Shown piece by piece: positions 14,326-63,628 of a DNA stretch of 64,000 nucleotides. A program made the position numbers and the translations under genes. Numbering within the stretch: the first letter of the stretch is position 1; each line of letters starts with the position of its first letter. Under the pieces are notes generated by a model. The model searched no databases, had not been told where the DNA came from, and was given only the letters and a program-made list of their open reading frames with translations. The stretch is from an uncultured bacterium (GTDB lineage Bacteria; Krumholzibacteriota; Krumholzibacteriia; WVZY01; JAKEHA01): the NCBI GenBank assembly GCA_964621155.1, contig CAZULB010000001.1, positions 10,402-74,401 of the forward strand, read 5' to 3'.

Positions 14326-14425
14326 GGATGCGTCCTCCGAAGGACGAGAATGTGGAAAGCACCGGTCGGAACAGAGTGGGGTGTGCTCGCTATATTTTCG
14401 CACTCGGGCAGGCTATGCGCAATGA

Positions 14426-37875: not shown

Positions 37876-38023
37876 CGGACCCTGAAAGGAGGAGCCCGGC
37901 AAAGCGGATTCGCACGAAAACCCCTCTCTTATTGGGTGAGAGGAAAGAATAAGGGATTGCAAGAGGTTGAAACAACCAGCAACGAAAGCAACAGCTACCA
38001 ACGTCTTTCTGGAGGAACTAAAC

Positions 38024-46370: not shown

Positions 46371-49300
46371 TTACGCGACTTCGAACAAATGGTCTTCGGA
46401 CGGATTCTCGGCCGGGATGAGCGCGGCGCTGGCACGGGCCGCCGCATCCTCGTGTTCGACCACACGCTCGCGCCACTCGTCGCGGAGCTTGTCCTCACGG
46501 TAGCGCTTGAGAAAATAACCGATGGTCTCGACGCGAATCTTGATGGACCCGGCCGGGCGATTCTCGTCGAGATCCTTGAATGAGTAGTACGGCGTGCCCG
46601 AGCGTTCGATGATTTCTTCCACCACGCTGTAGATGGGGGCGTCGTGGCCGCACTTGAAGTTGGACACCTCGAGAGCCACGAGGTTCGGGTGCCGTGCGGT
46701 GTACTTGGCGGCCCACACCTTGCGTGACGTGTTTTCGCTGTAGGCGTTCTTCCACACGTCGCTGATGTCCATGGGGTGCGCGATATCGCCAGCGCGGACT
46801 TCGTCGCCGAACAACCAGTCCAGGATGTCGTCGTCGATGGGAAGTGAGTCCTGCGTGAAGACCGGATAGCCGAGTTTCTGGAACTCGACGAGGATCTCGT
46901 GGTTGATACCGGGGTCGTTGTGATACGGGCGCCCCAGCACCACGATTCCGATCTTGTTCTCACGTTCCAGCTCTTCCAGCACCTCACGCGCGGCAGCGCG
47001 CGTCGATACCACGTATTCGTCGAGGGCCTTGAAGCCGGCTTCCGCCGCGCGCTCGTTTTCTTTCTCCGAAATCCCGAGCACATCCTTCCACGCCGCGAAC
47101 ATCTGGCGCGCGAACAGGTGCGGCTGCGCGACATTCACCACCGGGCAGAGATACTGGATGCCCTTCTTGGCGAAGGTGTCACCTTCCTTGGTGAAGGCGG
47201 CCTTCACGGCCTCCGGCGTGGCCGTGACCGTCGGGCACGCGCGGCAATCCTGCGCCTTGTAGATCTCGCTCTTCAGGTCGTCGATCATGGGGAAAAAGAT
47301 CGCGTCCAGCGGCTTCTTCTCGTGCTGTTTGAAAATCAGATTGTGCACGTGCGGAATGCCGAGCTTGCTCGGGAAGCACGGGTCGATGGCACCGCGCTTG
47401 GCGCCTTCCTTATAGAGGTCCTCGGTGGTGTAGTCCGAGTACACGAGGTTATGCGGACGAATGCCGAGCGACTCGAAGTACGCCGAGAAGAGCGGATTGG
47501 TCGAGTACTGGTTCAGCATGCGCGGAATGCCGATGCGATAACTCTCGCGCTTCTTCATCTGCTCGATGCGCGCCTTTTGCCCGCTGGTGAAGGCGTGCTT
47601 CGGGAGCGGATCCGCCACACTCTCCGGCTTGAAGCTCTTGAACACGTCGCGAGCGCTCTTCTCGATGAAGTTGGGCGCAGCCTTGAGGCGCGCGTCGAGG
47701 TCCTTCTTGATCTCGCGCATCGACTCGACGTCTTCGACGAGTCCCTTCTCGCACGAATTATTGACGATCAGCCGCCGCGCGCCCGGCATGAGCGGCACTT
47801 TCGACTTGCGTGCGCCCGCGGTGGCGCTGGCGGTGTCGACTTCGCCCTGCTCGCGCTTGATGGCTTTCTTCGAAGCCTCGACGTCGATGAACGTGCGCAG
47901 GCACTCGTTCTTGCAGAAGTGGCAGCGCGTGTCTTCCGACGTGTGCGTCGTGTAGGAAATGGTCTGGATGGCGTCGAGCCCGATGAAGCTGGTTATACGC
48001 CCGTTGGCGTGCAGGCGCTGCGCTTCCAGTGCCGCGCCGATGGCGCCGCTTTCGCCGCAGTGCTTGTGCACGATCACTTCGGGCAAATCGTCGGCCGTGC
48101 CGCGGAAGCGCGATGAGATGAAATCGACCTGCGACTTCACCGCGGCCAGGTTTCTCTGTGTGCCGCCCTGCAGCACGAATTTCTTCCCCAGCTTGGCCAG
48201 GTTGGGGATCTGCGCGACATACAGCCAGATGTTCTTGGGCAACACCGCGGCCAATCCGGCCATGATCTCGCCCGCCGTCCAACCCTGGCGCTGGAAGTCG
48301 ACGATATCCGACTGCATGAACACCGCGCAGCCATAACCGAAGGTCGGCATCTGCTCGGCACCGAATGCGGTGTCGGCGAACTTCTCCACCGGGACACCGA
48401 ACTCGCCCGCCGTGCTCTGGAGGAAATAGCCGTTCCCCGCGGAACACTGCGTGTTGAGCTTGAAGTCTTTGACGCTCCCGTCTTTGAGCACCATGATTTT
48501 GATGTCCTGGCCACCCACGTCGCAGATCACATCCACGTCATCGTAGAAATGGAGCGCGCTCTCGGCGTGCGCCACGGTTTCGACGATGGCGGCATCGGCG
48601 GCCAGCACATCGCGCAGGACGTCTTTGGCATAGCCGGTCGTGCCCACGCCCAGAATTTCGAGGCGGGCGCCGAACGATTCGACGTGGCGCTGGATGTCGC
48701 CGATCACCTCGATGGTGTCCTTGATGGGATTGCCCTTCGAGAGCTGGTAGGCCTTGCAGATCACTTCACGCGCTTCATTGACGAGCACGGCTTTGGTGGA
48801 GGTGGATCCACCATCCAGGCCGATGAAGGCTCTCACGACTTCGCCGGGCGCAAAGGTCGCGGGCTCGAAGGGCTCTTCCCGATAGCGTTCCTTGAAGCTT
48901 GCGAGGTCGGCGGGATCTTTCGAGAGTCCGACGCTCGCCTTGGCCTTGCTCTGCTTGCGCCCGACGTTGATGTACTCCTCGAGCGCGGTCCACCCTTTAT
49001 AGACACCGACGCCTTCGTCCTCGTCCTTGCCATACTCGACGGCGCCGAGGGCGGCGTAGTACTGCGCATTCTGCGGCACCACGATGAGCGACTTGGGATC
49101 AACGCCCTCGGGCAATTTGACCTCTCGCTCTTTCCACGTGATGGGAATGTTGTGCTGCCATGCTTCGCGCATGCCGCGGATGTAGGTATTGGGTCCGCCC
49201 AGCAGAATGACTTCGGGACGAAGCGTGTGGCCGCGCGTCAGTACCGAGAGATTTTGTCCGATGATGGCCTCGAACAATGAGGCCATCAATTCTTCGGTGG

Positions 49301-49886
49301 GAATGCCCTGTTTCTGCAGGCCGTTGATGTCGGTCTCGGCGAAGACACCGCACTTCCCCGCCACGTGGTGCAGCTTGACCCCGTTATAGCCCTGCTCGCA
49401 CAACTGCTCGGGAGGAATGCGCAGCTTGGCGTTGATCTTGTCGATGACGGCACCGGTTCCACCCGCGCATTTGTCATTCATCGACGGAATCTTCTTCTTG
49501 CGGCCGGTCTCGGGGTCTTCCTTGAAGACGATGATCTTGGCGTCCTGTCCGCCCAACTCGATCACGGAACCTGCGGCCGGATGCACCTTCTCGACGGCGA
49601 GACACACCGCGTTCACTTCCTGCACGAACTTGGCGCCCAGTTTGGGCGCGATGTTCATGCCGCCGCTGCCGGTGATGAACACGCAGGTTTCCCCCGCCGC
49701 GGTGGCGGCGCGAAGCCCGTCGACTTCTTCGTCGATGCGCTTGAGGAACTCGAGAACTTTTTCGGGTTGTTTGGTCTCGTGGCGCTGGTAGTCGTGCCAC
49801 ACCATGGCGTCCGTAGCGGGATCGACCACGACCGCCTTGACGGTCGTGGAGCCGACATCCATGCCAATGAGGAACCGGGCAGCCAT
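46371..49886 (-). CDS. CoA-substrate-specific enzyme activase (two BadF/BadG/BcrA/BcrD-type ATPase domains) fused to a 2-hydroxyacyl-CoA dehydratase-like domain
   Basis: N-terminus FLIGMDVGSTTVKAVVVD and second copy FIGLDGGSTSTKAVLVN (acetate/sugar-kinase fold ATPase). The 1171-aa architecture matches COG1924+COG3580/3581 fusions. Confidence 0.75.
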   Translation of the reverse strand: MAARFLIGMDVGSTTVKAVVVDPATDAMVWHDYQRHETKQPEKVLEFLKRIDEEVDGLRAATAAGETCVFITGSGGMNIAPKLGAKFVQEVNAVCLAVEKVHPAAGSVIELGGQDAKIIVFKEDPETGRKKKIPSMNDKCAGGTGAVIDKINAKLRIPPEQLCEQGYNGVKLHHVAGKCGVFAETDINGLQKQGIPTEELMASLFEAIIGQNLSVLTRGHTLRPEVILLGGPNTYIRGMREAWQHNIPITWKEREVKLPEGVDPKSLIVVPQNAQYYAALGAVEYGKDEDEGVGVYKGWTALEEYINVGRKQSKAKASVGLSKDPADLASFKERYREEPFEPATFAPGEVVRAFIGLDGGSTSTKAVLVNEAREVICKAYQLSKGNPIKDTIEVIGDIQRHVESFGARLEILGVGTTGYAKDVLRDVLAADAAIVETVAHAESALHFYDDVDVICDVGGQDIKIMVLKDGSVKDFKLNTQCSAGNGYFLQSTAGEFGVPVEKFADTAFGAEQMPTFGYGCAVFMQSDIVDFQRQGWTAGEIMAGLAAVLPKNIWLYVAQIPNLAKLGKKFVLQGGTQRNLAAVKSQVDFISSRFRGTADDLPEVIVHKHCGESGAIGAALEAQRLHANGRITSFIGLDAIQTISYTTHTSEDTRCHFCKNECLRTFIDVEASKKAIKREQGEVDTASATAGARKSKVPLMPGARRLIVNNSCEKGLVEDVESMREIKKDLDARLKAAPNFIEKSARDVFKSFKPESVADPLPKHAFTSGQKARIEQMKKRESYRIGIPRMLNQYSTNPLFSAYFESLGIRPHNLVYSDYTTEDLYKEGAKRGAIDPCFPSKLGIPHVHNLIFKQHEKKPLDAIFFPMIDDLKSEIYKAQDCRACPTVTATPEAVKAAFTKEGDTFAKKGIQYLCPVVNVAQPHLFARQMFAAWKDVLGISEKENERAAEAGFKALDEYVVSTRAAAREVLEELERENKIGIVVLGRPYHNDPGINHEILVEFQKLGYPVFTQDSLPIDDDILDWLFGDEVRAGDIAHPMDISDVWKNAYSENTSRKVWAAKYTARHPNLVALEVSNFKCGHDAPIYSVVEEIIERSGTPYYSFKDLDENRPAGSIKIRVETIGYFLKRYREDKLRDEWRERVVEHEDAAARASAALIPAENPSEDHLFEVA

Positions 49887-50005
49887 AGTCGAGCGGAGTA
49901 TGGGCTACGTGCCGCCCCGGGGCAATAGTGGAAACCGATTATTCTATTTCGTATACTACCGGCGCTGACTGCAGTCCGCCCCACTATAAATGACGAGGTT
50001 TGGCC

Positions 50006-50377
50006 ATGTCCGCGACCTACCGTCTGAATGATGACGTTGTCGAGATGACACTCAACGGCAGCACTGGAATCGACGAGGTCATTCAAACTTTCCACAAGGC
50101 TCTCGACGACTCGGATACTCCGGAAGAGTTCGTGCTCCTCCTGGACGTTCGCAAGTCCACCTCACTCGCCACCCGACCCACGTCCGAAATCATCAAAGTC
50201 GCGGAGTACCTGGGACCGTTCCAGGACCGCGTCAAGCGCTGCGCCGTACTGGCCACGGAGAACATTCATTTCGGACTGAGCCGCCTGGGTGCTGTGTACA
50301 GCGAGACGGCCGGTGTGATGACGAGCGTCTTCCGCGACAAGGAAGAAGCCATCGACTGGCTGCACAGCGGCCAGTGA
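50006..50377 (+). CDS. Hypothetical small cytoplasmic protein (possible STAS/SpoIIAA-like fold)
   Basis: ATG 50006 with a GAGG RBS. 123 aa; no strong motif. Confidence 0.4.
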   Translation: MSATYRLNDDVVEMTLNGSTGIDEVIQTFHKALDDSDTPEEFVLLLDVRKSTSLATRPTSEIIKVAEYLGPFQDRVKRCAVLATENIHFGLSRLGAVYSETAGVMTSVFRDKEEAIDWLHSGQ

Positions 50378-50391
50378 GTCGCAGCGTCCGC

Positions 50392-53300
50392 CTATTTGAG
50401 CAGTACCATCTTCTTCGTGTCGACGAACTCGCCTGCGCGCATGCGGTAGAAATACACGCCCGAGGCGACGCGCTGTCCGCGATCGTCGTCTCCATCCCAG
50501 TGCACTGACCATGATCCTGGGTTGCGTCGCTCGTTCACGAGCTCGCGCACGCGGCGTCCGGACACGTCATAGATCGAGATGTTCACATCGGCGCCACCCG
50601 CGGGCACGTCATACGTGATCGCGGTAAGCGGATTGAACGGATTGGGAATGTTCTGCCCCAACGCGAACGCGAGCGGTCGATTGCCGGTACCGGTCGGCAA
50701 GAGATGGGGCTTTACGACGACCACGTGCGACGCCGCAGTAGTGGCGAGGAATCCAGGAATGGTCGCCGAGACAGTGACGCTGCCAGGATTCAGCGGACCG
50801 AACTCCACACCGCCGAGCACCGCCGACGCCGCCGATTGCGACTGGCCGGCCGGAATCGCCACGACGACTGGTGAGCCATTCAGCGCATCTGTGACGAGCG
50901 TCGCGAAACCAAGATCGGATAGCGACACCGTCGCATTCAGCGTCGGGCCGCCGGGGCGCACGAACTGCGGAGCCCCGACAGTGGCCTGATCACTGCTCGC
51001 CGTGCCCACTCGTACCACGAACGGATCATTGGGATCATTGTCCATGATTGAATCCGGCAAGAGCGCAACCTGCAGTGCAGGTTGCACCACGTTCGCCACG
51101 CGAACGCCCGAGGTGAAGGTGGGCACGCTGGCCGAGACCGTTGATGTGCCCATCGCAACACCCTGAACGTAAAAGGAAACCTGTGTGCTCCCGTTCGATA
51201 GCGGGAAGTCCAGCGAAGCCGTCCCCGGCGTGGAGAAATTAGGGGCAAGCAGTGCGACTGATGGGTCGCTGCTCGCGACGTGCACCGTAACGCCACCGTG
51301 CTGGGCCAGTCCCAACACCGCGCTGATAACACCGCTCTGCAATCCCTCCCCGACATCTTCAATGGCTCCCATGGTAACGATACGCTGCGAAACGACCACC
51401 TGCTGTGTCGCCGCGCCCATCGGCGTGAAGCCCGGGATGGTCGCCGCCACCAGCGTTGTCCCGGGCCCGAGCGGATCGAACGCGACGCCGCCGGTGGCAA
51501 CGGTGGCACCCGACGATGACGCGCCAGCCGAAATGTTGACCGTGACCGATGCGCCGGTGGCAGGCGTCGTCACCAGCTGACCGGCGACCGCGTCGGTGAG
51601 AGTGATGGTTGCGGTCACACCCGGACTTCCGGCGCGCACCGACTGCGCGGGATTGACGGACCCATTGCCGCTCGCGGGCAGTCCCACGCGCACCTGGAAC
51701 GGGTCGTTGGGATCCGTGGCGTCGAACGCCGCGGCGAGACCGATCATGTCGAGCGCCGGTGTGACGATGGTCGCCGTCTGGCTCGCCGAGATGAACCCGG
51801 GCGCCGACACGGTGATCAGTGACGTGCCCGTCACGTTCTCCATTCCCGAAACGTAGAACGTGGCAGTCGCGGATCCGTTGGCCACGGATAAATCGATGGA
51901 GGCGCTGCCCGCCGTGCTCGCGTTCGGCGCCACCAGCGCGACCGATGGGTTCGCGCTTGCGATGTGCGCCGTGACGCCTCCGTGATTCGACACGCTCAGT
52001 GTGGCCGAGTTCCCCGAGTTCTGAAGGCCGGCGCCGATGGTCCCCAGCGCACCGAGAGAAATGGTCGGTTGCGTGACGGCCACCGTCTGACTGGCGGCCG
52101 TGGTCGTAATGAAACCAGGAATCGTGGCGGAGACCGTGGTCGATCCGAGCGCGGTCCCGTCAAAGGCGACGCCGCCCGTCGCGACCGTCCCAGGCGACGT
52201 TGAATTTCCGGGGGTGATTGATACCACCACCGAATCTCCGGTGAGCGGCGTGGTGATGAGGTCGCCGACCGGATGGCTGGAATTCTTGATGGTGGCCGTG
52301 AGGGGGACACCCCCCGCACGAATGTTTTGCGTTGAATTCACGCTGGTGTTGCCCCCGGATGGCAATCCGACGCGGACATAGAACGGGTCGCTCGGAGCGA
52401 GCGTGTCGAGGGTTGTGACCAGACCGCTGATGTCGAGCGCCGGCTGCACGACGGTCGCCGTCTTGCTCGCCGAGGTGAACCCGGGCGCCGACACGGTAAT
52501 CAGTGATGTGCCGGTCACGTTTTCCATGCCGGAGATGTAGAAGGTCACACCGGTGGATCCGTTCGGCACGAACGCGTCGAACGAGGCGTTCCCCGCGGTG
52601 GTTGCGGTGGGAGCCACGAGGGCCACGGATGGGTTGGCGCTTTCGACGTGCACCGTCACGCCGCCGTGCTGCGACGCGCTCAGCGTGGCCAAGTTCCCCA
52701 AGCCCACAAGACCCGAGCCGACATTGGAAATTGCGTTGAGCGTGATCACGGGCTGCGTGACGGTCACCGTCTGACTGGCGTTCGTCGTCGCTATGAAACC
52801 GGGGATGGTGGCGGACACGGTGGTCGAGCCAAGCGCGGTCCCGTCGAAAGCGACGCCGCCAGCCGCGACGGTCGTCGGCGAGAAGTAAGAACCGACGGGG
52901 ATCGTCACCGTGACGGAGTCCCCGGTGAGGGCCGTGGTGATGAGATCGCCGACCGCGATTGCGGAATTCTTGATGGTGGCCGTGACGGGGACACCCCCGG
53001 CACGAATGCTTTGCGTCGGATTCACGCTGGTGATACCGCCGGATGGCAGGCCGATCGTGACCCAGAACGGGTCCACGGGATCGAGCGTGTCGAGGGTGGT
53101 GACCAGACTGCTGATGACGAGCGCGGGTTGCTGAACGTTTGCGAGCCGGCTGGCGTTGCCAAAGCCGGGCGCGGAAACGGTGATCAAGGAAGCGCCGCTC
53201 ACTCCTTCGAGACCCGACACGACGAACGACGTGCCCGTGAGCCCGTTGGCAAGGAAGATGTCGATAGAAGCAGTTCCGACGGTCGTTGCATTGGGCGAGA

Positions 53301-54189
53301 CCAACGCCACCGACGAATCGGCGCTCTCCACGTGAATGGTCACGCCGCCGTGCTGCGACCCGCTCAGTGTCACCCCATTGGCCAAACCCTGCAGACCCGA
53401 ACCCACGTTTCCGATTGCATTGAGCGTGATCACGGGCTGCGTGACGCTCACATTCGCGCTGGCCGCCGCGGTGGCAATGAATCCGGGAATGCTTGCCGAC
53501 ACCGTGGTCGACGCGACGTTCAGGCCGTCAAAGGCCACACCGCCCGCGGCAACGCTCGTCGGCGAATAGTAGAGACCGGGTGTGATAGAGACGGTGACCG
53601 TCTGGCCCGTAAGGGGCGTGGTAATGAGCTGCCCGGCGAACGCGTTCGAGTTGACGATCGTTGCCGTGAGTCCCGTGCCGCCGATGCGCACGCTTTGCGT
53701 TGGATTCACGGTGCCGTTGCCGCTCGATGGCAACCCGATCTGGACCCAAAACGGGTCCGCAGGATCGAGCGTGCCGATGGAGGTGACCAGGTTGGAGATG
53801 GCGACCGCCGGCTGAACAATGGTCGCGGTCCGGCTCCCGCTGGTAAACCCGGGCGCCGACACCGTGATCATCGCGGTGCCGGTGACGTTCTCCATGCCCT
53901 GAACAACGAATTGCACGCTGGATGACCCGTTGGGGACAAACACGTCGAACGATGCGCCGCCGGCGGTGGAGATGTTGGGCGCGACCAGAACCACCGACGG
54001 GTTGTCGCTCTCGACGTGCACGGTCTTGCCCCCGTGCTGCGACGTGCTCAAGGTGGCCGTGTTGGCGCTGCCCTGGAGTCCGCTCCCCACATTGGAGAGC
54101 ACGGGCACAGTGATGGTTTGTGCACGCGCGTTCGACGCCGCGAGCGTGCCCAGGAATGCAATGACAAGAATCAGCGGTGAGCGTTTCAT
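50392..54189 (-). CDS. Giant secreted repeat protein (5 x ~230-aa tandem domains) with T9SS-type C-terminal sorting domain
   Basis: Signal peptide MKRSPLILVIAFLGTLAASNARA. Repeated blocks begin (I)T(V/L)..(S/G)NVGSGLQG...SQHGG(K/V)T(V/I)HVES.DPSVALVAPN. C-terminus NPFNPLTAITYDV...ISIYDVSGRRVRELV...GVYFYRMRAGEFVDTKKMVLLK. Confidence 0.7.
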   Translation of the reverse strand: MKRSPLILVIAFLGTLAASNARAQTITVPVLSNVGSGLQGSANTATLSTSQHGGKTVHVESDNPSVVLVAPNISTAGGASFDVFVPNGSSSVQFVVQGMENVTGTAMITVSAPGFTSGSRTATIVQPAVAISNLVTSIGTLDPADPFWVQIGLPSSGNGTVNPTQSVRIGGTGLTATIVNSNAFAGQLITTPLTGQTVTVSITPGLYYSPTSVAAGGVAFDGLNVASTTVSASIPGFIATAAASANVSVTQPVITLNAIGNVGSGLQGLANGVTLSGSQHGGVTIHVESADSSVALVSPNATTVGTASIDIFLANGLTGTSFVVSGLEGVSGASLITVSAPGFGNASRLANVQQPALVISSLVTTLDTLDPVDPFWVTIGLPSGGITSVNPTQSIRAGGVPVTATIKNSAIAVGDLITTALTGDSVTVTIPVGSYFSPTTVAAGGVAFDGTALGSTTVSATIPGFIATTNASQTVTVTQPVITLNAISNVGSGLVGLGNLATLSASQHGGVTVHVESANPSVALVAPTATTAGNASFDAFVPNGSTGVTFYISGMENVTGTSLITVSAPGFTSASKTATVVQPALDISGLVTTLDTLAPSDPFYVRVGLPSGGNTSVNSTQNIRAGGVPLTATIKNSSHPVGDLITTPLTGDSVVVSITPGNSTSPGTVATGGVAFDGTALGSTTVSATIPGFITTTAASQTVAVTQPTISLGALGTIGAGLQNSGNSATLSVSNHGGVTAHIASANPSVALVAPNASTAGSASIDLSVANGSATATFYVSGMENVTGTSLITVSAPGFISASQTATIVTPALDMIGLAAAFDATDPNDPFQVRVGLPASGNGSVNPAQSVRAGSPGVTATITLTDAVAGQLVTTPATGASVTVNISAGASSSGATVATGGVAFDPLGPGTTLVAATIPGFTPMGAATQQVVVSQRIVTMGAIEDVGEGLQSGVISAVLGLAQHGGVTVHVASSDPSVALLAPNFSTPGTASLDFPLSNGSTQVSFYVQGVAMGTSTVSASVPTFTSGVRVANVVQPALQVALLPDSIMDNDPNDPFVVRVGTASSDQATVGAPQFVRPGGPTLNATVSLSDLGFATLVTDALNGSPVVVAIPAGQSQSAASAVLGGVEFGPLNPGSVTVSATIPGFLATTAASHVVVVKPHLLPTGTGNRPLAFALGQNIPNPFNPLTAITYDVPAGGADVNISIYDVSGRRVRELVNERRNPGSWSVHWDGDDDRGQRVASGVYFYRMRAGEFVDTKKMVLLK
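50650..54117 (-). repeat. ~690-bp tandem coding repeats (about 5 copies) within CDS 50392..54189
   Basis: Protein periodicity of ~230 aa. The antisense plus-frame ORFs (around 51.6, 52.2, 52.9 and 53.6 kb) recur with near-identical translations. Confidence 0.6.
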
Positions 54190-54261: not shown

Positions 54262-54573
54262 TCACGTGTATCCGTTCTTGAAGTTTTCCCACACGCTTGT
54301 CGTACCCGAGACGATGCCGGCGTGGGCAACCGCCGGGAGCGATTGCAGGTATGCGAGCGCGCGGACCGCAATCGTGTTGGGACTCTCTGCGCTCCACCGC
54401 TCCACCTGCCCGGCCACCAACCCGAGATTCTTCACCCAGGCGCTATCGCCACTCGTCACGGTCCCGCCGCCGCCACCTCCTCCGCCCCCGTCGTCCTTGG
54501 GTTCGGTACTGTTGTTACCGGAGCAAGCGGCGAAGACGACAAGAACAAAAAGGACGAGCGTTTCATGTGGAGC
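54262..54573 (-). pseudogene. Truncated N-terminal paralogue (about 100 aa) of lipoprotein gene 57251..59329, with an apparent 1-nt frameshift in the signal-peptide region
   Basis: ATG AAA CGC at 54573 reads MKRSS... in one frame. The downstream homologous frame (LFVLVVFAACSGNNSTEPKDDGGGGGGGGGTVT...TIAVRALAYLQSLP) aligns to MKRFALFLLIVFAACSSDNGTAPKDPGGGGGGGGGGAVT...SIAVRAAGYLSQQP of the intact gene and stops after ~100 aa. Confidence 0.35.
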
Positions 54574-54575
54574 AC

Positions 54576-57239
54576 CTACTTGAGAAGAACCATCTTCCTG
54601 GTTTCGACAAAATCGCCCGCCCGCATGCGGTAGAAGTACACACCCGACGCCACGCGCTGGCCGCGATCGTCGTCGCCATTCCATTGCACGGACCAGCTTC
54701 CCGGACCGCGGTGCTCGTTGACGAGTTCACGCACCCGCGCACCCGCGACGTCGTAGATCGTCATGTTCACGTCCGCTCCCCCCGCCGCCACTTCATAACG
54801 AATGGTGGTCTGCGGGTTGAACGGGTTGGGAACCGCCTCGTGCAATGCAAACTTGAGGGCGGGCTTGTCGCCCACCGCGGTGGCGGCCCCCGCGCCGATC
54901 ACGAACGGTGAAAGACTTGTCGTCGTGCCACAAATCACGTCGACGTCGGTGTCGAGGAGGGTGGTGATGTTGACCCAAGCGGGTGGATTGAGCGACGCGT
55001 CGTAGTGGAGCAATTGCAGCGATGCCTCGGGCACCGAGAGTGCGAACGGGTCGTACTCGATACACACCTCGATGGTGCCGTTGAAGCTGACCAGGGTGCT
55101 TATGTTGTAGAACCTCCCGTCACCGGCTGTGAAGGACCCGGGGAGGGCCGGGCCGGTGGACGTGACCTCGAGATTGGTTCTGCCCGACTGGGACACGTTC
55201 GCGAACGTGATGCCCACATTGTGCAATCCGCTTCCGTTTTCGTCCCACGGCTGAATGTGCACGTTGTTCCCCACCGGCGTGTTCGGAAGCAGGAACGCGA
55301 CCGTGTTCGAGACCACGCTGCGATTGCAGTTCAGGTCCAGGGCAATCACCGACCAGTACTGATCTGTGCCCCCGGGGTTGGAGATGGTGTAGAGCGTGTC
55401 GGTTGCCGTGTCGTAGTAGCTTTCGAAGGGAGGCTGTACCGGAATCTGACTCATGTAGACGGCGTAGTACATGATGTCGGACGCGGGTCGCGACCAGTGG
55501 AGCTGCAGCAAGCCGGGCGGAACGATGTGCGACGCGAGGACCGACGCCGGCGGCGCGATGTTGTCGAACGAAGTCCCATGCCGGATGTTCGATGATTCGA
55601 GCGAGGAGATGTAACCGAGCACCCGGAAGTTCTGCCCGAATAGCTGCCAGCACGTCGAATCATCCTGGGTCGGTTCGTTGGCGACATAGAGGTCGGTTCC
55701 GTTGTCGTTGATCCAGTCGATTGTGATCCATGCTCCGTTGTCGTTGCGCTGCACCTCGTACAGGTAGTTCTCACCGGGACGGTCGAGATCCTTCCAACGC
55801 ATGGTCACGTGCCGGCCCTCGTCGCCCGGCGTGTCAACGATCGATGTGATAACCGGCTCGGGATTTCCCCACGCTCCGGCCGCACTCATGCGCTGCGCAT
55901 AGGTCTGCGAGGTACCGCTGCGGGCATCCGACCAGGCGATCATGCTGGCGCCGTTGACGCTGGGCGCGATCACGGGGGTGACTTGTGCCCCGGTGGCAAG
56001 ACAGACTTCGGAGCCTTGCAGCACGAAGAAGAGATTGCCGAGCGCATCAACGCGGCGCGCATAGATGTTGTCTCCCGCGACGCGCTGATCCTGCCAGGTG
56101 ATGATGGCGCCGTTGGAGCCGTCGGTCGTCAGGGTGGGCGCAACCTGGTGGCCGGACGCGGTACAAACCGCAACTCCATCGGCTGTCCACAGGGCGGTGC
56201 CGCTGGCGTTCACGCGCCGGGCGTAGATGTCGGCATTGCTGAGGCCGTTGCGCATGTCGCGCCAGGTCGCGATGCCGCCGCCTGCGCCGTCGGCAATCAA
56301 GATGGGATCGTACTGATCACCGAGCGAGCCACAGAGCACCACGCCGTTCGCGGCCCACAGCATATTGCCTGCGCCGTCGGTGCGCTGGGCCCAGATATCG
56401 GTGTGGGAGATGCGTCGATCCTGCCACACGACGATGGCGCCACCGGCACCGTCGGAAACAATCTTCGGGACATTCTGACTCGCGCCCGCGTTGCAGACGA
56501 TGACTCCGTCCGCGGTCCACAGCGGCGTTCCGCTGGCGTTCACGCGACGGGCGTAGATGTCGGCCTGCAGACTGCTGACGCGCTCATCGTGCCACACCAC
56601 GATGGCGCCACCCGCGCCGTCGGATGCGATCGAGGGACCATCCTGGTTGTTCGCTGCGGTGCACAACGCAACGCCGTTCGTCGCCCACGCCCGCTTGCCG
56701 TCCGAATCGTAACGCGCGGCATAGATGTCCGCGCTGCCGCTGCGCGTGTCGTCCCACGCGATGATGGCCCCGCCCGCGCCATTCGACGCAATCACGGGGT
56801 GTGCCTGCGTGCCGGTCGCCGTGCAGACAGCGACCCCGTTGCCGGTCCAGGCCGACTTGCCGGACCCATCTACTACCTGCGCGAAGATGTCCCCGGTGGC
56901 GTTACGCCCGTCTTCCCAGACAATGATCGCTCCACCCGCACCATCGGCGATGATCGCGGGATTGATCTGATCGCCGGCCGCGGCGCAAATCGTTGCGCAC
57001 CACACGGTGTTTCCCGCGGGAGTAATCCGGGACGCGACAATGTCGTAGGCTCCATTACTCGCGTCGCCCCACGCGATGATGGCTCCGCCGGCGCCGTCAG
57101 AGGCGATCGCGGGTGCCTGCTGCGCCCCCGTCTTCGCGCACGGCGGAAGGCCGTTGATCACCCATTGTGCGTTCGCGGTCGCGATTGCCACAACGCACAC
57201 AAACGCGGTTGTAAGTATCAGGGTTGCGTGCCTCTTCAT
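54576..57239 (-). CDS. Secreted protein with 8 tandem ~47-aa repeats (DGAGGAI[IV]xW...DIYAxRV...GV.VCTA) and T9SS-type C-terminal sorting domain
   Basis: AGGAG RBS. Signal peptide MKRHATLILTTAFVCVVAIATANA (ATG 57239). C-terminus NPFNPQTTIRYEV...MTIYDVAGARVRELV...GVYFYRMRAGDFVETRKMVLLK. Confidence 0.7.
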   Translation of the reverse strand: MKRHATLILTTAFVCVVAIATANAQWVINGLPPCAKTGAQQAPAIASDGAGGAIIAWGDASNGAYDIVASRITPAGNTVWCATICAAAGDQINPAIIADGAGGAIIVWEDGRNATGDIFAQVVDGSGKSAWTGNGVAVCTATGTQAHPVIASNGAGGAIIAWDDTRSGSADIYAARYDSDGKRAWATNGVALCTAANNQDGPSIASDGAGGAIVVWHDERVSSLQADIYARRVNASGTPLWTADGVIVCNAGASQNVPKIVSDGAGGAIVVWQDRRISHTDIWAQRTDGAGNMLWAANGVVLCGSLGDQYDPILIADGAGGGIATWRDMRNGLSNADIYARRVNASGTALWTADGVAVCTASGHQVAPTLTTDGSNGAIITWQDQRVAGDNIYARRVDALGNLFFVLQGSEVCLATGAQVTPVIAPSVNGASMIAWSDARSGTSQTYAQRMSAAGAWGNPEPVITSIVDTPGDEGRHVTMRWKDLDRPGENYLYEVQRNDNGAWITIDWINDNGTDLYVANEPTQDDSTCWQLFGQNFRVLGYISSLESSNIRHGTSFDNIAPPASVLASHIVPPGLLQLHWSRPASDIMYYAVYMSQIPVQPPFESYYDTATDTLYTISNPGGTDQYWSVIALDLNCNRSVVSNTVAFLLPNTPVGNNVHIQPWDENGSGLHNVGITFANVSQSGRTNLEVTSTGPALPGSFTAGDGRFYNISTLVSFNGTIEVCIEYDPFALSVPEASLQLLHYDASLNPPAWVNITTLLDTDVDVICGTTTSLSPFVIGAGAATAVGDKPALKFALHEAVPNPFNPQTTIRYEVAAGGADVNMTIYDVAGARVRELVNEHRGPGSWSVQWNGDDDRGQRVASGVYFYRMRAGDFVETRKMVLLK
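55900..57170 (-). repeat. ~140-bp tandem coding repeats (8 copies) within CDS 54576..57239
   Basis: GAGGAIIAW / GAGGAIIVW / GAGGAIVVW / GAGGGIATW / SNGAIITW blocks at regular ~47-aa spacing. Confidence 0.55.
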
Positions 57240-57250
57240 TTCACTACTCC

Positions 57251-59329
57251 TCAACGCGCCGCATCCGGATCGGGCAGGAAGAACGGCGTAATATCGTTCC
57301 ATCTGATTTTTGCCTGCCCGTCCAGCTCCGGGCCAAGATGGGTGACCAGGGGAGTCACCGAACATGAGCCGCGCTCGCCCTTCAAGATTTCGAAATCGTT
57401 GTTCATCGGGATGAGGAACGCGGTCGCCTGTCCGTGGTCGTCGAACAAACAGTCCTCGGTTGCGACCTGAACGTAGAGCGGCTTGCTGAAGTTCTCGCAG
57501 TCTCCCGACCGCTTCCACGTCCCCGCCGTGAACACGGCGAGGACTTGCATGGCCAGTCGCAGCTGATGAGCCTTGGTATCGACGGATCCGAAATACACGT
57601 AGAGCCCATCGGGACTTCCATACCAGACGGACTCGATCTTTCCTCCCTGCCCGAGCGTGTAGGTGTCCGTGCAATCGGCGATGGTTTCCGAGTATTCGCC
57701 GCCCGTGGTGATTTCGATCCTGGAGTCGTCGCTTGGCCCGAAGAGCACTGTGGTTTCGAACGGCTCCTCACCCGGCTCGTCGCGGAACGAATGAATATCG
57801 GCGCGGAAGCGGAGGCTTATTTTCATCTGGGCGGTTTGACTGCCGGGATCATCGCGGTCGTACGTCCACTCGCCCTTCCACTCGGTGAGGTTTACGGGAT
57901 TGCTAATGCGTGCATCGTCTCCGGTCCCGACCTTGACGACGACGGTGCCGGATGCATTGCTGCCCGTGTCGGGCAGGTCGCAGTTGATTTCCGACGGGAA
58001 CCACTCGACATTGTCGAGCCGCACGTCGTTGATAGTCACCTCACGGTTGCCTTCACCAGGATCGGTTCCGAAAAGCCCCGCGATGATGAGTCGGCGGCGA
58101 TCGGGGGTTTCGTCGACCGAGAGGAACTGGATGGTCGGCGACAGGAGACCGAAGTCGCCGTTCATCCGTGTCGGTGTGAGTACGGCGTTCTTGTATGGGT
58201 CATCCGTAAGCTGGCGGTGAACTTTCATGTCGTTCAGCACCTGATCAATGTTGAACGCCCGCTGCTTCGGGTCTTCGGGTGAGATTTCGTTCGTCCCCAA
58301 CAGACGGTCGAACAGGTATTTCATCGCTTTGTACGCGAACCTGTCATCCACCTGGGTGGTCCATCCCAGGTAGAGGGACGCACCGTTGTTCTTGAAGGCC
58401 TGTTGCATGTCGAACGCGGCAGCGGATGCACTCGAACATGCGTCGATGAAGACGAGGCTGTTTTTTCCGAAGCTCATGTTCTCCGCCACGAACCCGGCCG
58501 TGATTCCATAGTGGCACACATTCCGGCATTTCCCCTGCTCGTCGCGGCCTCGTTCCGTCATGATCACAAGATCACCGTTGTGGAGCATCTTGTTATACGA
58601 TTCGAGCGTGTTCCACTCGTGCGTCGTTGTCGTCCACAAACCGTAGACGGGAATCCCGTCATCGTTCTTCCCCACCCCTCCGTGCGTATCGAGGTAGAAA
58701 ATGCCGTTGCCACGAACTTTCTTCATGTCGTCAACACTGCCTTCGAGATCGCCTGCATTCACGTAGTGTCCCTTGCGCAGCAGCATCTTTAGGACTCCCA
58801 GAGGATTGACAAAACACGAGCCGATCGCATTGACGGCACGGAATGTGGGCTGCGCGGGAAGCTCGAGTCCCTTGGATGGAATGCGCATGGCTTTCATCAT
58901 CTGCCGGCCGGCCGGGATGGCAACACGCCTCGGGGGCGCGACCCGGCTCGGCGCTTGCGCAGCGACGTCGTCGATGAGCGTGTCGGTCGCAGCGCTTTGG
59001 TTGCGATTGTTGGGAAAGATCAGGGAAACGCCGTCCGTGAAGACGGCCCAGACCGTCGTCTCTCCCGGTGTGATGCCGGAGGACTTGATCAATGGTTGCT
59101 GGCTCAAGTAGCCGGCCGCGCGCACGGCGATGCTGTCCGCGCTCATTCCGTCCCACAGGTCGAGTTGCGCCGCGAAATCCTGCATCGCCTCGACACGAAG
59201 CGAGTCGATATGAGTGACCGCTCCGCCACCGCCCCCCCCGCCACCACCACCGGGATCCTTGGGAGCGGTTCCGTTGTCACTCGAGCACGCGGCAAACACG
59301 ATCAGGAGAAAAAGGGCGAAGCGTTTCAT
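57251..59329 (-). CDS. Lipoprotein with poly-Gly tether and caspase-like (clan CD, gingipain/legumain/clostripain-type) cysteine-peptidase-like domain
   Basis: Signal peptide with lipobox MKRFALFLLIVFAACS. A run of 12 Gly. Candidate catalytic dyad: His in YLDTHGGVG and Cys in SLVFIDACSSAS (H-G ... D-A-C). Confidence 0.55.
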   Translation of the reverse strand: MKRFALFLLIVFAACSSDNGTAPKDPGGGGGGGGGGAVTHIDSLRVEAMQDFAAQLDLWDGMSADSIAVRAAGYLSQQPLIKSSGITPGETTVWAVFTDGVSLIFPNNRNQSAATDTLIDDVAAQAPSRVAPPRRVAIPAGRQMMKAMRIPSKGLELPAQPTFRAVNAIGSCFVNPLGVLKMLLRKGHYVNAGDLEGSVDDMKKVRGNGIFYLDTHGGVGKNDDGIPVYGLWTTTTHEWNTLESYNKMLHNGDLVIMTERGRDEQGKCRNVCHYGITAGFVAENMSFGKNSLVFIDACSSASAAAFDMQQAFKNNGASLYLGWTTQVDDRFAYKAMKYLFDRLLGTNEISPEDPKQRAFNIDQVLNDMKVHRQLTDDPYKNAVLTPTRMNGDFGLLSPTIQFLSVDETPDRRRLIIAGLFGTDPGEGNREVTINDVRLDNVEWFPSEINCDLPDTGSNASGTVVVKVGTGDDARISNPVNLTEWKGEWTYDRDDPGSQTAQMKISLRFRADIHSFRDEPGEEPFETTVLFGPSDDSRIEITTGGEYSETIADCTDTYTLGQGGKIESVWYGSPDGLYVYFGSVDTKAHQLRLAMQVLAVFTAGTWKRSGDCENFSKPLYVQVATEDCLFDDHGQATAFLIPMNNDFEILKGERGSCSVTPLVTHLGPELDGQAKIRWNDITPFFLPDPDAAR

Positions 59330-59430: not shown

Positions 59431-60102
59431 CTAGCGCGTGCGGATGGAGCCGGGAGCAGAGGTGGCGATCACGTCGCCCTGGGAAAGGGCGAAAACCCGC
59501 CAGGTGAGGTCAAGGTGAGGCACCTGGTTGGGAGGTAGAACAGCGCGCTCAATGGTCAACGAAGTTGCCGCTGTATTCGACGAACGATAGATTTCGCCGA
59601 AGTCAGGGCCGTAGAGACGGACCTGGTACGCGTCGGCACCCGCGGCGGGAGTCCAGCTCAAAAGGATCCTCTCGCCTCCTGCGAGTTCTGCAGGATTGAG
59701 CGCAAATGCCTGCGACGACGTCGCGCTGTCGCGCAACGAGCTCTGTTCCGGTTCGCGGGTAGTCCAGAAAACCGCTGCGGCAATGACCACCAAGCTGGCC
59801 GCGAGGAGCGGGGCGGGACGCAACATGGCCTGCCACCGGGAGGCGCGCGCCGGCGCTTGCGACGCTTTCCAGCGTGAGGCGTCGGCACGAATTCGCGCAT
59901 CCAGCATGCCACGTGCGCGCTCGAGCTCTGAGCCCTCGACGGGTGCCGCCTCCACGAACGACTGATAGGAAGCCACGAGGCTCTTGCAGCGTGGACAGCT
60001 TTCCGCGTGCCGACGGACCGGGTCGTCGACCGGAAGTTCGAGCACCATCCCGGCCTCGCGCGTATCGATGCACTCGGCGTCCATGCGTTTCTCGTCTTTC
60101 AT
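59431..60102 (-). CDS. Anti-sigma factor with zinc-finger (zf-HC2-like) N-terminus and one TM
   Basis: H...C..C motif (RRHAESCPRCKSL). TM LLAASLVVIAAAVFW. Periplasmic C-terminal domain. 4-nt overlap (ATGA) with the upstream sigma gene. Confidence 0.65.
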   Translation of the reverse strand: MKDEKRMDAECIDTREAGMVLELPVDDPVRRHAESCPRCKSLVASYQSFVEAAPVEGSELERARGMLDARIRADASRWKASQAPARASRWQAMLRPAPLLAASLVVIAAAVFWTTREPEQSSLRDSATSSQAFALNPAELAGGERILLSWTPAAGADAYQVRLYGPDFGEIYRSSNTAATSLTIERAVLPPNQVPHLDLTWRVFALSQGDVIATSAPGSIRTR

Positions 60103-60692
60103 TTTGCTTCCCTCCTTCGCTCCAGTGCAGCGCGAAGCTTCTTGCGCGCGCGCTGCAGCACGGTGCGCGCGCCCGAGGCGTTTTCCAGTTTCATGATACG
60201 TGTCACGTCATCGATTCTCATCCGCTCGACACAACGCAGCCAGATCGCCTGCTGTTCATCCGGTTCGAGCTCGGTGCGAATCATCTGCAACAGCCACTGC
60301 TCGTCGCGTTCTTCGTTCAGTGCCGCATCCGGCGTCGGCCTGCCGTCCGGCGCGGAGGTGACGGCGTCCTCGTCGAGCAGGTAACTCACATGCCGGCTGG
60401 CGTCGATGCATCGATTACGCGTCACCGCGAACAACCAGGACGAGAACTTGGCCCGTCCCTCGAATGTGCCCATCCGCTCCCAGACGCTGGTGAGCACGTC
60501 CTGGGAAAGATCGAGCGCGCGCTCCACGTCCCCGGTGTAACGGAAACACCACAGGTACACCGAGTCACGGTACCGCAACACGAGCTCGGTCGCGGCCGCA
60601 CGGCAGCGCTCCGCATCGCCGCCCGAACGGACAACGAGCAGAAGTTCCTCATCGGGGACAGTCTTGTCCCACCTGTTTGACGAAGCACCCAT
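60099..60692 (-). CDS. ECF (sigma-70 group 4) sigma factor
   Basis: Region 2 (ALDLSQDVLTSVWERMGTFEGRAKFSSWLFAVTRN) and region 4 (RMRIDDVTRIMKLENASGARTVLQRARKKL). Confidence 0.85.
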   Translation of the reverse strand: MGASSNRWDKTVPDEELLLVVRSGGDAERCRAAATELVLRYRDSVYLWCFRYTGDVERALDLSQDVLTSVWERMGTFEGRAKFSSWLFAVTRNRCIDASRHVSYLLDEDAVTSAPDGRPTPDAALNEERDEQWLLQMIRTELEPDEQQAIWLRCVERMRIDDVTRIMKLENASGARTVLQRARKKLRAALERRREAK

Positions 60693-60724
60693 GAATAATC
60701 ACGCGCAATCGGTGCGCCTGGCCA

Positions 60725-63628
60725 TCATCCCACGAAGGCGCGGGCGCGTCGATGTCGTATGAAGAGCCCGACGGCAACCAGGAAAAAAGCTCCTGCCAAC
60801 GCCTTCAGGGCGAAACTCAATGTTACCAGGCGCTTTTCAACGGGTAGTGTCCGTGCCCCATCGCCCACCACCGTGAAGCCGGACCAGTAGAAGGGATGCG
60901 CCCAACGCGTCATGTGGCTGGCGTCGAGTTGGGCGTGACGCAGTGCCGTAGCCACGGACTCGCCGTCGGAAAGATTGCGATAGAACGATCGCATGATGAC
61001 GGCCGTGGCCCTGTCATCCACCGGCCACAGGCTGGCGACCACAACCGGTACCCCCGCGCTCAAGAATGCGGCGGTCAGACCGATGGTTCCCTCTCCCGTG
61101 GTCATGCGGCCGCCGGCAGTTTCACACGCGGACAACACGGCGAGTCGCGCAGGGATATCCAGTTTCGCGATCTGCCACGCCCGCACGTACGGATCGGACG
61201 GAAACGTTCGTTCGATGGTGAGCGAATCCACGTCGGAAAGAAAACCGGCGCGCGTGTGCGTCGTGGCCGTGGCACGCGATGCAAGCGTCTCTGCGGTCGC
61301 ACTCTTCGTACTCCTCAGTTCGATCCCCGACCACCATGGAGAACGATCCACCAGCAGAGCATGCGACGCGATATGCAGCACATCGGCGCGGCCGGCGGCC
61401 TCCCCGAACGCGTCCGGCCCGCTCAGATCGGCAAGCGTTTCGACGTGACGATACTGCCGCGCCAGGTCGCGCACCTCTTTACGCGCTCCCGACAGCCCCA
61501 CCGCGGAGGCGCTGATTGCAACCACTCGCAGCGGCGTCTGAGGTTCCGGTCGGAGGGCGGTTCGCTGGAGCACGAGCACGCCGGCCGACGGAACCTGAAC
61601 GACATCCCGCTTCTGCATCAGCCCATCGTTTCCATCGCCGATGATCAGAAGGCCGAACGGAATCGACGCAAAGTATCCGTCCGGACACACGAACACGCGC
61701 GTCGATGCATCGACAATAGTCGCCGCGCCGCCCAGGATGTCGCGGCCGAGCGCGCGTTGTACGGCGACGAGCCGATCGACGCTGTATTCGTCGCGCAGTG
61801 AGTTATCCGTGCTGGCGAGCACGGTGCGCAGCAGTTGGACGCGTTCCTGGAGCCCCGACGCCGGGCCAGGCAGTTCGACGAACCGTAACGAGTCCGCCGT
61901 TACCGCGGCGAGAAACGACGCCTTCACCCCCACGCAGAAATCGAGCACCGCTTCTCCCGGGCGCAAAGCGGATTGCAAATCCGCCAGCGTCGCGGACTGT
62001 TCCGGCAATCGTGCCGCGTTACCCGAGGCGCCGGCTCGGGGTCGGTTGATGCGGTCGAGAAGTGCGCGTGTCTTGACGCGCTGAATCGCATCGAAGAAGG
62101 AGCGCTCACGAACCGACGGCGCGGCCGACTCGGGATACTCGAGCAATACGCGCCCCGCCTCGACTACATCCTGCGCCACCCATTGCCCGTAGACCTCGCG
62201 CCACTCTGCCGTGCTGATCCCGCCGCGCACCGCCGTGAGACTGTCGAGGGCAGCGTAATATGTCTTTGTGGCCTGCGCACGATCGCCCGCCACACGCAGA
62301 CACTTGCTTTCAAGAAACATCGCCGCGACCATGGCGCGTCTTTGTCCGTTGGTCAGAGCCACTTCCCGTGCACGTCGCGCGCATAGAAGGGCCTCCTGAG
62401 TGTTTCCGTTGTCGGCGTAGAGACGCCCGAGCACCAGGTTCGCTTCGGGCAGGTTCTCGGCGTAGAAACTGGTGCCGCGGGCCCTCATATGCCCGGACAG
62501 GAGTTCGATCGCGGCGGCGGCACTGTCGCTCGAAAGGGATTCGGCCAGGTCCACGATGAGCAGGTCACGATGCTGGGCTTCCAGCCCGCCGGTGCGAATC
62601 AGGCGGCGCATGATGCTCCTCGCGTTCGCGTGCCGGCCCTGTGCCACCCGGAGGACGGCAAGTTGGTAGTCCAGAACAGGAATCTGCTCCAGCGTCCCCT
62701 GCGTCTCGCACACGGCGCGCGTCTGGTCGAGCACCTTTTCGGCGGTTTCGTAATCACCCAGCTCCCCGAGTCGAGCGGACAGGTTGGTGGCGGGAATGAC
62801 CATCGCGACGGGGGACCTGAGTTCCTTCGCCAGAACCAGGGCACGTTGGAGATACTCCCAGGCCCGGCTCATGTCGCCCTGAAAGTTCTCCATGGCGGAG
62901 AGATTGTTGAGCGACCACATCTCGTTCATGCGGTCGCCCACCTCCCGCGCTGCCACCCACGATTGCTTGTACCACCGAATGGCCGCGGGCCCGTCGCCGA
63001 CGGCGCTGGCAATACGTCCCAATCCGATCAAGGGTTCAATTTCAAATCGCTTCGTGCCGGCGGCGTGGAAGAGCGCGAGTGCACGCTCGTATTCCTGCTT
63101 CGCGCGTTTCTGGTCGCCGGTAGCGTGGAAGACCATGCCGAGAGACGTGCGCGCCCACGCTTCGTCGACCGGTGCGTGCGCACGCTCGGCGAGCATCAGA
63201 CGGTGCTCGAACCAGCGAGCCGCCTCATCGGGCTGTCCGGCGCTCCAGCGCGCGAACCCTTTGAAACTCAGCGCGGGCATGAGACCCATCGTGTCCTGCA
63301 CGGACTCCGCGATGCGTATACCGGTGTCAATTTCGCGTTCGGCATCAGGATGCCCGAGCATCAGGAGCGCGCGCCCACGCTGTGTGATGGCGCGGCCGAA
63401 GAGCATCGAATCCCCGCTCGCTTCGGCGCGCCGCATGAAGGTGGACGCAATAGCACGGAGCGAGTCGTATTGTCCGGTAGTGAACAGATTCTCGCTGAGG
63501 TTGCGCAGGGAGTCTGCGGTTGTATGCGAGGACGGGGCCGGAGGCGCGGCACCCGACGTCAGCACGCCCGCGATCAGAAGCGAGCAGACGGCGAGCGTAA
63601 GACGACGGGCGCGGGAAAGGGCAACCAC
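60725..63628 (-). CDS. TPR-repeat CHAT-domain protein (caspase-like) with N-terminal signal peptide and C-terminal TM anchor
   Basis: Multiple TPR helices. C-terminal CHAT signature: His (ADVLHIASHALL) and Cys (LAVLSACETAGG) motifs. Terminal hydrophobic segment LKALAGAFFLVAVGLFI. Confidence 0.75.
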   Translation of the reverse strand: MVALSRARRLTLAVCSLLIAGVLTSGAAPPAPSSHTTADSLRNLSENLFTTGQYDSLRAIASTFMRRAEASGDSMLFGRAITQRGRALLMLGHPDAEREIDTGIRIAESVQDTMGLMPALSFKGFARWSAGQPDEAARWFEHRLMLAERAHAPVDEAWARTSLGMVFHATGDQKRAKQEYERALALFHAAGTKRFEIEPLIGLGRIASAVGDGPAAIRWYKQSWVAAREVGDRMNEMWSLNNLSAMENFQGDMSRAWEYLQRALVLAKELRSPVAMVIPATNLSARLGELGDYETAEKVLDQTRAVCETQGTLEQIPVLDYQLAVLRVAQGRHANARSIMRRLIRTGGLEAQHRDLLIVDLAESLSSDSAAAAIELLSGHMRARGTSFYAENLPEANLVLGRLYADNGNTQEALLCARRAREVALTNGQRRAMVAAMFLESKCLRVAGDRAQATKTYYAALDSLTAVRGGISTAEWREVYGQWVAQDVVEAGRVLLEYPESAAPSVRERSFFDAIQRVKTRALLDRINRPRAGASGNAARLPEQSATLADLQSALRPGEAVLDFCVGVKASFLAAVTADSLRFVELPGPASGLQERVQLLRTVLASTDNSLRDEYSVDRLVAVQRALGRDILGGAATIVDASTRVFVCPDGYFASIPFGLLIIGDGNDGLMQKRDVVQVPSAGVLVLQRTALRPEPQTPLRVVAISASAVGLSGARKEVRDLARQYRHVETLADLSGPDAFGEAAGRADVLHIASHALLVDRSPWWSGIELRSTKSATAETLASRATATTHTRAGFLSDVDSLTIERTFPSDPYVRAWQIAKLDIPARLAVLSACETAGGRMTTGEGTIGLTAAFLSAGVPVVVASLWPVDDRATAVIMRSFYRNLSDGESVATALRHAQLDASHMTRWAHPFYWSGFTVVGDGARTLPVEKRLVTLSFALKALAGAFFLVAVGLFIRHRRARAFVG

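Follow-up and report, generated by a model that had tools for sequence, protein, structure and literature searches.

What does a long, repetitive and apparently secreted protein do for an uncultured bacterium, and into which fold do its repeats assemble? This question is raised by a gene on the minus strand (54576..57239) of a stretch of 64,000 nucleotides from a member of the Krumholzibacteriota (assembly GCA_964621155.1, contig CAZULB010000001.1, positions 10,402 to 74,401). This whole stretch is called the window here; all coordinates refer to it, and the features of the gene are given on its minus strand. The gene encodes a protein of 887 residues, which combines a signal peptide, a repeat domain that is predicted to form an eight-bladed β-propeller, a divergent C-terminal half and a sorting tail. 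We conclude that this propeller protein is in no way exceptional within its family of surface proteins, which is very large and widespread among bacteria and archaea but has not been studied functionally.

The repeats follow directly behind the signal peptide. Eight units are arranged in tandem, with lengths of 51 to 59 residues (median 54) and the consensus nGVxvCxAxGxQxxPxIxxDGAGGAIxxWxDxRxG..DIYAxRvxxxGxxxW. In the unit alignment, unit 1 comprises residues 29-79 (57003..57155), unit 2 residues 80-133 (56841..57002), unit 3 residues 134-187 (56679..56840) and unit 4 residues 188-243 (56511..56678), which has a B-C loop that is longer by two residues. They are followed by unit 5 (residues 244-297, 56349..56510), unit 6 (residues 298-353, 56181..56348), unit 7 (residues 354-407, 56019..56180) and unit 8 (residues 408-466, 55842..56018). 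The alignment confirms the number of eight units given in a preliminary description of this DNA, but not the period of ~47 residues stated there, which corresponds to the span of ~43-47 residues between the DGAGG and CTA motifs. A GAGGAI-type core, said to be present in every unit, is found in seven of the eight as [DN]G[AS][GN]G[AG]I (DGAGGAI, NGAGGAI, DGAGGGI and DGSNGAI); unit 8 is degenerate, with SVNGASM in place of DGAGGAI and SQTYAQR in place of DIYAQR.

The likeness of the units goes well beyond their composition. Their mean pairwise identity is 0.43, as compared to 0.204 ± 0.020 (maximum 0.252) in 100 composition-preserving shuffles, which places it about 11 standard deviations above the shuffled units, and seven columns are invariant among all eight units versus a mean of 0.11 after shuffling. 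The possibility that no conserved positions exist beyond composition is therefore dismissed. Tandem Repeats Finder detected no repeat in the DNA; the repeat is old and exists at the protein level only.

The fold of the repeat domain (residues 26-466, 55842..57164) was predicted with AlphaFold2 on an alignment of the domain with 119 homologues. The resulting model has a pLDDT (predicted local distance difference test) of 95.8 and a pTM (predicted template modelling score) of 0.94, and is all-β with four strands per unit. Each repeat forms one radial, four-stranded antiparallel sheet and the ring of sheets is closed, such that the domain is, on this model, an eight-bladed β-propeller. Of the two folds initially proposed, a β-propeller or a β-solenoid, only the former stands; the latter is excluded within the limits of a prediction. 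According to DSSP, the inner strand A corresponds to QxxPxIxS, the A-B turn to DGAGG, strand B to AIxxWxD, strand C to DIYAxRV and the outer strand D to GVxVC; DGAGG would form a tight turn near the propeller axis. The N-terminal sequence QWVINGLPPC aligns with the outer-strand segment xxWTxxGVxVC, and DSSP assigns it a one-residue bridge only. QWVINGLPPC matches strand D, which is missing from unit 8, and may thus close the last blade in a velcro-like manner. In a Foldseek comparison of the propeller model, CylK ranked first, followed by PLL-type lectins, GH145, PL42 and sialidases, at template-modelling (TM) scores of ~0.5.

The aligned cysteines deserve separate consideration, because they had been proposed to form inter-blade disulfides. 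As noticed from the start, each unit carries one such residue (C34, C85, C139, C193, C249, C303, C359 and C413), which is located at the end of the outermost strand D, and unit 2 contains the additional C81. When 120 family members are compared, cysteine occupies each of the eight columns in 71-88% of them, with serine as the chief replacement. The most frequent number of cysteines per protein is seven (44/120), the number is even in 50%, and the losses are independent between blades (maximum pairwise r 0.33). As the cysteines are lost independently, most often number seven and are replaced mainly by serine, inter-blade disulfides find no support, and a disulfide-stapled repeat protein was rejected on account of the lack of both paired conservation and a preference for even counts. 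The pattern is instead characteristic of a small side chain that is fully or partly buried.

The family to which the propeller belongs is exceptionally large. A search with residues 26-463 returned more than 6,000 significant matches with 40-65% identity over ~98% of the query, and the consensus of the 119 homologues and the window domain is a single 54-residue motif repeated eight times. When phmmer was run against 1.84 billion cluster representatives, which were defined at 50% identity, 32,017 of them matched at E ≤ 1e-3, 20,105 at E ≤ 1e-10 and 8,025 at E ≤ 1e-30. Most members consist only of a signal peptide, the propeller and a tail, with a median length of 570 residues. In others, the propeller is fused to PKD, TIG or β-helix-like modules, and the matches also include proteins of 4,000-5,500 residues with several propellers, the longest chains reaching 5,506 residues. 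Such fused or chained architectures are typical of adhesin-like surface proteins.

The best relatives are 47-65% identical and are found in metagenome-assembled genomes (MAGs) of the Latescibacteria type. Among species-representative genomes, relatives are present in Latescibacteria, Krumholzibacteriia, Bacteroidota, Ignavibacteriota, Gemmatimonadota, Cloacimonadota and Syntrophales, and also in Asgard archaea (Helarchaeota, Promethearchaeia). In Asgard MAGs assigned to Helarchaeota, Promethearchaeia and Hodarchaeota (L016, L020, L022, L027 and P0065), the relatives of the propeller are 36-47% identical over ~450 residues. These archaea cannot make use of a type IX secretion system (T9SS), and the occurrence of close relatives in them suggests that the propeller module was transferred between domains of life.

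The statement that the repeat family is not recognised was fair with respect to Pfam. Scans with the whole protein and with sub-regions returned nothing for the repeat, and no propeller family appeared even at E values up to 10 (WD40, PQQ, Kelch, SBBP, PD40, Ldl_recept_b, NHL and FG-GAP were covered; DUF1491 and DUF6613 were noise only). PDB searches with the protein sequence and with the 120-sequence profile matched the tail only (FlgD, PorZ) and gave nothing for the repeat. The statement does not hold for NCBIfam, where TIGR04275 (beta_prop_Msarc) matches the window protein in three stretches with E 9.8e-17 and 60.4 bits, below its curated cut-off of 85. The 40-position model aligns to the core of the unit, from the cysteine through QxxPxIxxDGxGGAIxxWxDxR to DIY; residues 83-119, for example, correspond to model positions 3-34. 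Nine of ten homologues tested also match (E 1e-9 to 1e-28), and P0084, which is 61% identical to the window protein, differs from it in exceeding the cut-off with 97.9 bits; P0040 reaches 84.7 bits. Judged by these alignments, the window protein is homologous to the TIGR04275 repeat, yet it lies below the naming threshold, and the name itself carries no function. NF053835 (PDIAV motif-containing lipoprotein) gives a weak match with E 2.7e-5 and 23.8 bits versus a cut-off of 90.

That the protein is secreted, as had been stated, is supported by its N-terminus. Residues 1-25 (57165..57239) read as a Sec-type signal peptide, MKRHATLILTTAFVCVVAIATANA, in which a charged n-region (KRH) leads into a hydrophobic core and the cleavage motif A-N-A precedes Q26; this assignment was made by reading the sequence. 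The consensus of the family alignment begins with A-x-W behind a variable hydrophobic leader, which matches a cleavage between MKRHATLILTTAFVCVVAIATANA and QW. The coding sequence is complete, with 887 codons and a stop codon at 54576-54578, and its ATG (57237-57239) is preceded by a ribosome-binding site, GGAG, seven nucleotides upstream (57247..57250, read directly from the sequence). This start is supported by the alignment with the closest homologue, P0040, which begins at residue 3. A longer, TTG-initiated reading frame listed by the ORF (open reading frame) finder was discarded because of the GGAG-preceded ATG, the P0040 alignment and the spacing to the upstream gene for a lipoprotein of 692 residues, the stop codon of which (57251-57253) lies 12 nucleotides before the ATG.

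Behind the propeller, the protein changes in character. A BLASTP alignment with P0040 (691 residues) shows 62% identity over the propeller region and the same architecture, but skips residues 483-652. These residues fall within an insert of 186 residues (467-652, 55284..55841) that has no counterpart in P0040 and P0084 and is present in two Latescibacteria-type loci, where tblastn detects homologues of 42% (L002) and 40% (L003) identity. The AlphaFold2 model of the insert (pLDDT ~30) is unreliable, because a search with residues 464-797 retrieved only four homologues; our guess from the sequence is that it may comprise two modules resembling FN3 or immunoglobulin (Ig) domains. It is followed by a pre-tail β-sandwich module (residues 653-788, 54876..55283) with a pLDDT of ~90; no Pfam family matches this module or any other part of residues 464-797. 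The pre-tail module is common to P0040, P0084, the Kelch-type proteins P0123 and P0124 and the proteins of 1,075 residues in locus L001, and is thus joined to unrelated heads, namely Kelch domains in P0123 and P0124 and a propeller with β-helix-like regions in L001.

The C-terminal sorting domain (residues 798-887, 54579..54848) is a T9SS type A C-terminal domain (CTD) or FlgD-type Ig-like sandwich that ends in KMVLLK. TIGR04183 (residues 804-884) and PF13860 (FlgD_ig) match above their cut-offs, with 28.6 versus 23 bits and 34.7 versus 27 bits, respectively, while PF18962 (Por_Secre_tail) with 19.2 bits stays under its cut-off of 27. AlphaFold2 predicts an Ig-like β-sandwich for the tail (pLDDT ~90), and Foldseek matches it to PorU (E 2.8e-4), PorZ (E 3.2e-3) and FlgD. 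The preliminary description of a different C-terminal half followed by a T9SS tail is borne out by these results. The tail resembles the CTDs of T9SS type A cargo, such as RgpB, PorU and PorZ of P. gingivalis, in being a C-terminal Ig-like β-sandwich of ~90 residues that exceeds the TIGR04183 cut-off, but differs from them in favouring FlgD_ig over Por_Secre_tail. The architecture of type A CTDs is described in PMC11285876. The closest relatives of the tail-bearing window protein belong to Latescibacteria- and Krumholzibacteria-type MAGs, and a literature search retrieved no paper on T9SS in this lineage.

At least four proteins of the window carry a T9SS-type tail and all of them end in KMVLLK, the other three being encoded at 50392..54189 (minus strand), 11959..14403 (minus strand) and 37967..39748 (plus strand). 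In their last 95 residues, the propeller protein (54579..54863) and the 1,265-residue repeat protein encoded at 50392..54189 share 76% identity at the protein level and 74% at the DNA level.

What, then, does the propeller do? We favour, with moderate confidence, that it is exported by T9SS and displayed at the cell surface as a non-catalytic binding or adhesion module, in which the repeated motif is a structural zipper and the variable loops provide specificity. The protein would cross the inner membrane via Sec, T9SS would recognise the CTD, and the propeller would then either stay on display at the cell surface or be released, with the 186-residue insert and the Ig-like sandwich as a stalk beneath it. 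In each blade, the motif would hold neighbouring blades together, and the variable residues of two loops on one face, D-A (CTAxxxQ) and B-C (WxDxRxGxx), would carry ligand specificity. Among the 119 homologues, the conserved positions are identical in every blade and no residue is conserved in one particular blade, which argues against a single catalytic centre. Within strands B and C, the conserved residues alternate (W-x-D-x-R; D-I-Y-A-Q-R), and the motif is read as a zipper because alternating residues fit side chains that face one inter-blade interface.

Several points speak against a surface-displayed binding propeller of this kind. The motif residues are most likely engaged in inter-blade contacts and the variable loops most likely share one face, but this placement is derived from the strand order of the model only. 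No member of the family has a known ligand, a known binding site or experimental data behind it, and literature searches found no paper on the TIGR04275-like propeller family. The best Foldseek matches are enzymes and lectins, not scaffolds. The T9SS machinery comprises PorK/L/M/N, Sov/SprA, PorU and PorV, and no machinery family was matched by the minority of window ORFs that were scanned with Pfam and NCBIfam. The presence of homologues in Asgard archaea shows, in addition, that a T9SS is not required for the propeller to work. Finally, the lipoprotein gene that lies upstream is found nearby in only two (L001 and L002) of 28 related loci (L001-L028).

Among the other readings, a multivalent lectin survives best, although we regard it as unlikely. 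The residues conserved in each blade would then form up to eight equivalent sugar pockets between the blades, built from the Trp, Asp and Arg residues in WxDxR, from Asp, Tyr and Gln in DIYAQR and from the ring of Gln residues with which strand A begins. Propellers of the PLL/PHL, AAL/RSL and tachylectin types bind sugars in pockets between their blades, and a high identity between blades is a hallmark of propeller lectins. In the window protein, too, the blades resemble each other to an unusual degree, with one set of aromatic and polar residues conserved in all eight blades throughout the family, and Foldseek retrieves the PLL-family lectins CV39L (E 2.2e-10) and PHL (E 8.1e-9). The likeness is nevertheless one of fold only: PLL, PHL, CV39L and BP39L have seven Trp-rich blades instead of eight blades and are 10-13% identical at TM ~0.5-0.6. 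Moreover, the alternation of the conserved residues in β-strands is the one expected of buried packing and not of pockets, and in propellers of the WD40, YWTD and Kelch types the motif that recurs from blade to blade is likewise purely structural.

An enzyme with its active site in the central funnel of the top face, delivered to the surface by the CTD for polymer degradation, is quite unlikely; it could be a glycoside hydrolase or polysaccharide lyase similar to the GH145, PL42, PL24 or sialidase propellers, or an alkylating enzyme similar to CylK, which catalyses Friedel-Crafts alkylation. It is favoured by the top Foldseek matches, which are CylK (E 2.8e-13), GH145 (BT3686, BACINT_00347), the PL42 rhamnose-glucuronate lyase, sialidases and ulvan lyases, and by the fact that many T9SS cargos of the Fibrobacteres-Chlorobi-Bacteroidetes group are degradative enzymes. 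A single active site would break the symmetry of the propeller, yet every conserved column across the 119 homologues belongs to the per-blade motif, and the asymmetric conserved residues of an active site are missing, in contrast to CylK and the carbohydrate-active propellers. These enzymes also differ in blade number (5-7 blades, TM ~0.5), CylK has an extra N-terminal domain, and there is neither a match to a CAZy-type Pfam or NCBIfam family nor any other sequence match at the family level.

Speculative, and rather improbable, is a new class of multivalent surface receptors, in which W, D, R, Y and Q of each blade would form an identical pocket and a conserved free thiol or hydroxyl group (Cys or Ser) would sit at the rim of each blade. 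If true, this would represent an eight-fold symmetric lectin or polymer-capture device that is widely used by uncultured anaerobes of sediments. A β-solenoid, some other non-propeller repeat fold or a propeller whose blades are stapled together by disulfides, which the Gly-rich core, the single cysteine per unit and the even number of eight aligned cysteines might have indicated, is extremely improbable in view of the cysteine statistics given above and of the distance of ~17 Å between adjacent blades at the radius of the cysteines, a rough geometric estimate that was not taken from coordinates.

The propeller proposed here as a surface-displayed binding module is also distinct from known eight-bladed propellers. 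The WD40-type proteins Notchless, Cdc4 and Sif2, the designed protein Ika8 and, in addition, BamB are 7-14% identical to the window protein, which has no WD40 or PQQ match in Pfam, no GH...WD motif and blades of 54 instead of ~40 residues. WD40-type proteins are cytosolic or nuclear adaptors and BamB is a periplasmic lipoprotein, whereas the window protein is predicted to be extracellular and carries a T9SS tail.

The window protein is of value as a clean example, with a good model, of a domain family that is very large, absent from Pfam and known in NCBIfam only by the generic name 'beta-propeller repeat'. Spread over bacteria of the Fibrobacteres-Chlorobi-Bacteroidetes group and Asgard archaea, the family abounds in little-known phyla (Latescibacteria, Krumholzibacteria, Ignavibacteriota, Gemmatimonadota and Cloacimonadota). 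With the domain defined by its eight 54-residue blades and the motif QxxPxIxSDGxGGAIxxWxDxRxGxxDIYAQR, tens of thousands of proteins now listed as 'hypothetical' would be better annotated, and the ligand of the domain, once found, would inform on how uncultured organisms deal with particles or polymers.

The genes around the propeller gene form a cluster that is headed by a putative regulatory set. Upstream, likewise on the minus strand, are located the genes for a TPR-CHAT protein (60725..63628; CHAT, E 2e-47), a sigma factor of the extracytoplasmic function (ECF) type (60099..60692), a candidate anti-sigma-like protein of 223 residues without a family match (59431..60102) and the 692-residue lipoprotein (57251..59329). 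The ECF sigma factor and the candidate anti-sigma gene at the head of the cluster lead us to infer that the propeller gene would be under their regulation. Downstream follow the gene for the 1,265-residue Ig-like repeat protein (50392..54189) and a BcrAD/DUF2229 gene.

The lipoprotein has a FAAC lipobox with 11 consecutive Gly behind it, and TIG at E 0.14 is its sole trace in Pfam. It had been labelled caspase-like, which is not borne out by Pfam, NCBIfam or PDB sequence searches, all without a significant match; its LDTHGG and IDACSS motifs are recognisable by eye only. The GGAG site and the 12-nucleotide spacing suggest an operon with the propeller gene; the stretch that separates them shows no terminator-like site on the minus strand, and the gene arrangement indicates that they are probably co-transcribed. 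Homologues of the lipoprotein are also encoded beside propeller genes in L001 (53% identity) and L002 (46%). Because this holds for only two of the 28 related loci, the partnership is lineage-specific, and the lipoprotein was discarded as a family-wide partner of the propeller.

A reading frame of ~100 residues, beginning with HETLVLFVLVVFAACSGNNSTEPKDDGGGGGGGGGTVTSG, lies between the propeller gene and the gene of the giant repeat protein (54262..54567, minus strand). It is 50.5% identical to residues 6-100 of the lipoprotein over 95 residues (E 5e-28), including the lipobox and the poly-Gly linker, and the only ATG nearby (54564-54566, 'MKRSS') is one base out of frame. This frame looks like a truncated and frameshifted remnant of a second lipoprotein gene, and gives a hint that a cassette of a lipoprotein and a tail-bearing cargo once existed in tandem.

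The gene order is conserved in two related loci. In L002, which belongs to a Latescibacteria MAG, the genes for the CHAT protein, the sigma factor, the anti-sigma protein, the propeller protein and the lipoprotein occur together, and the TPR-CHAT, ECF sigma and anti-sigma-like trio of the window (59431..63628) has its counterpart at 2..3932, beside the propeller gene, with 46-58% identity. L001, the locus of P0040, covers the C-terminus of the anti-sigma-like protein, the lipoprotein and the propeller protein, and this part of the arrangement recurs there. The lipoprotein gene of L001 (293..2322) and the propeller gene of L002 (5710..9578) are each split over two reading frames, by assembly frameshifts or as pseudogenes.

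A comparison of the window (46371..54189) with L001 (4452..14410) shows that both flanks are syntenic, with the anti-sigma and lipoprotein genes on one side and the BcrAD/DUF2229 gene on the other. The interval between the propeller and BcrAD genes is occupied by the single 1,265-residue Ig-like repeat protein in the window versus two 1,075-residue proteins with propeller and β-helix-like regions and an S8 peptidase in L001. This interval may represent a variable island of surface proteins.

Elsewhere in the window, an ORF of 841 residues (25777..28302, minus strand) shows weak WD40-type matches in residues 256-407 (E ~1e-6) together with a BPD_transp_1 permease domain, which would be an unusual fusion if real, and it adjoins a second permease gene (24116..25780).

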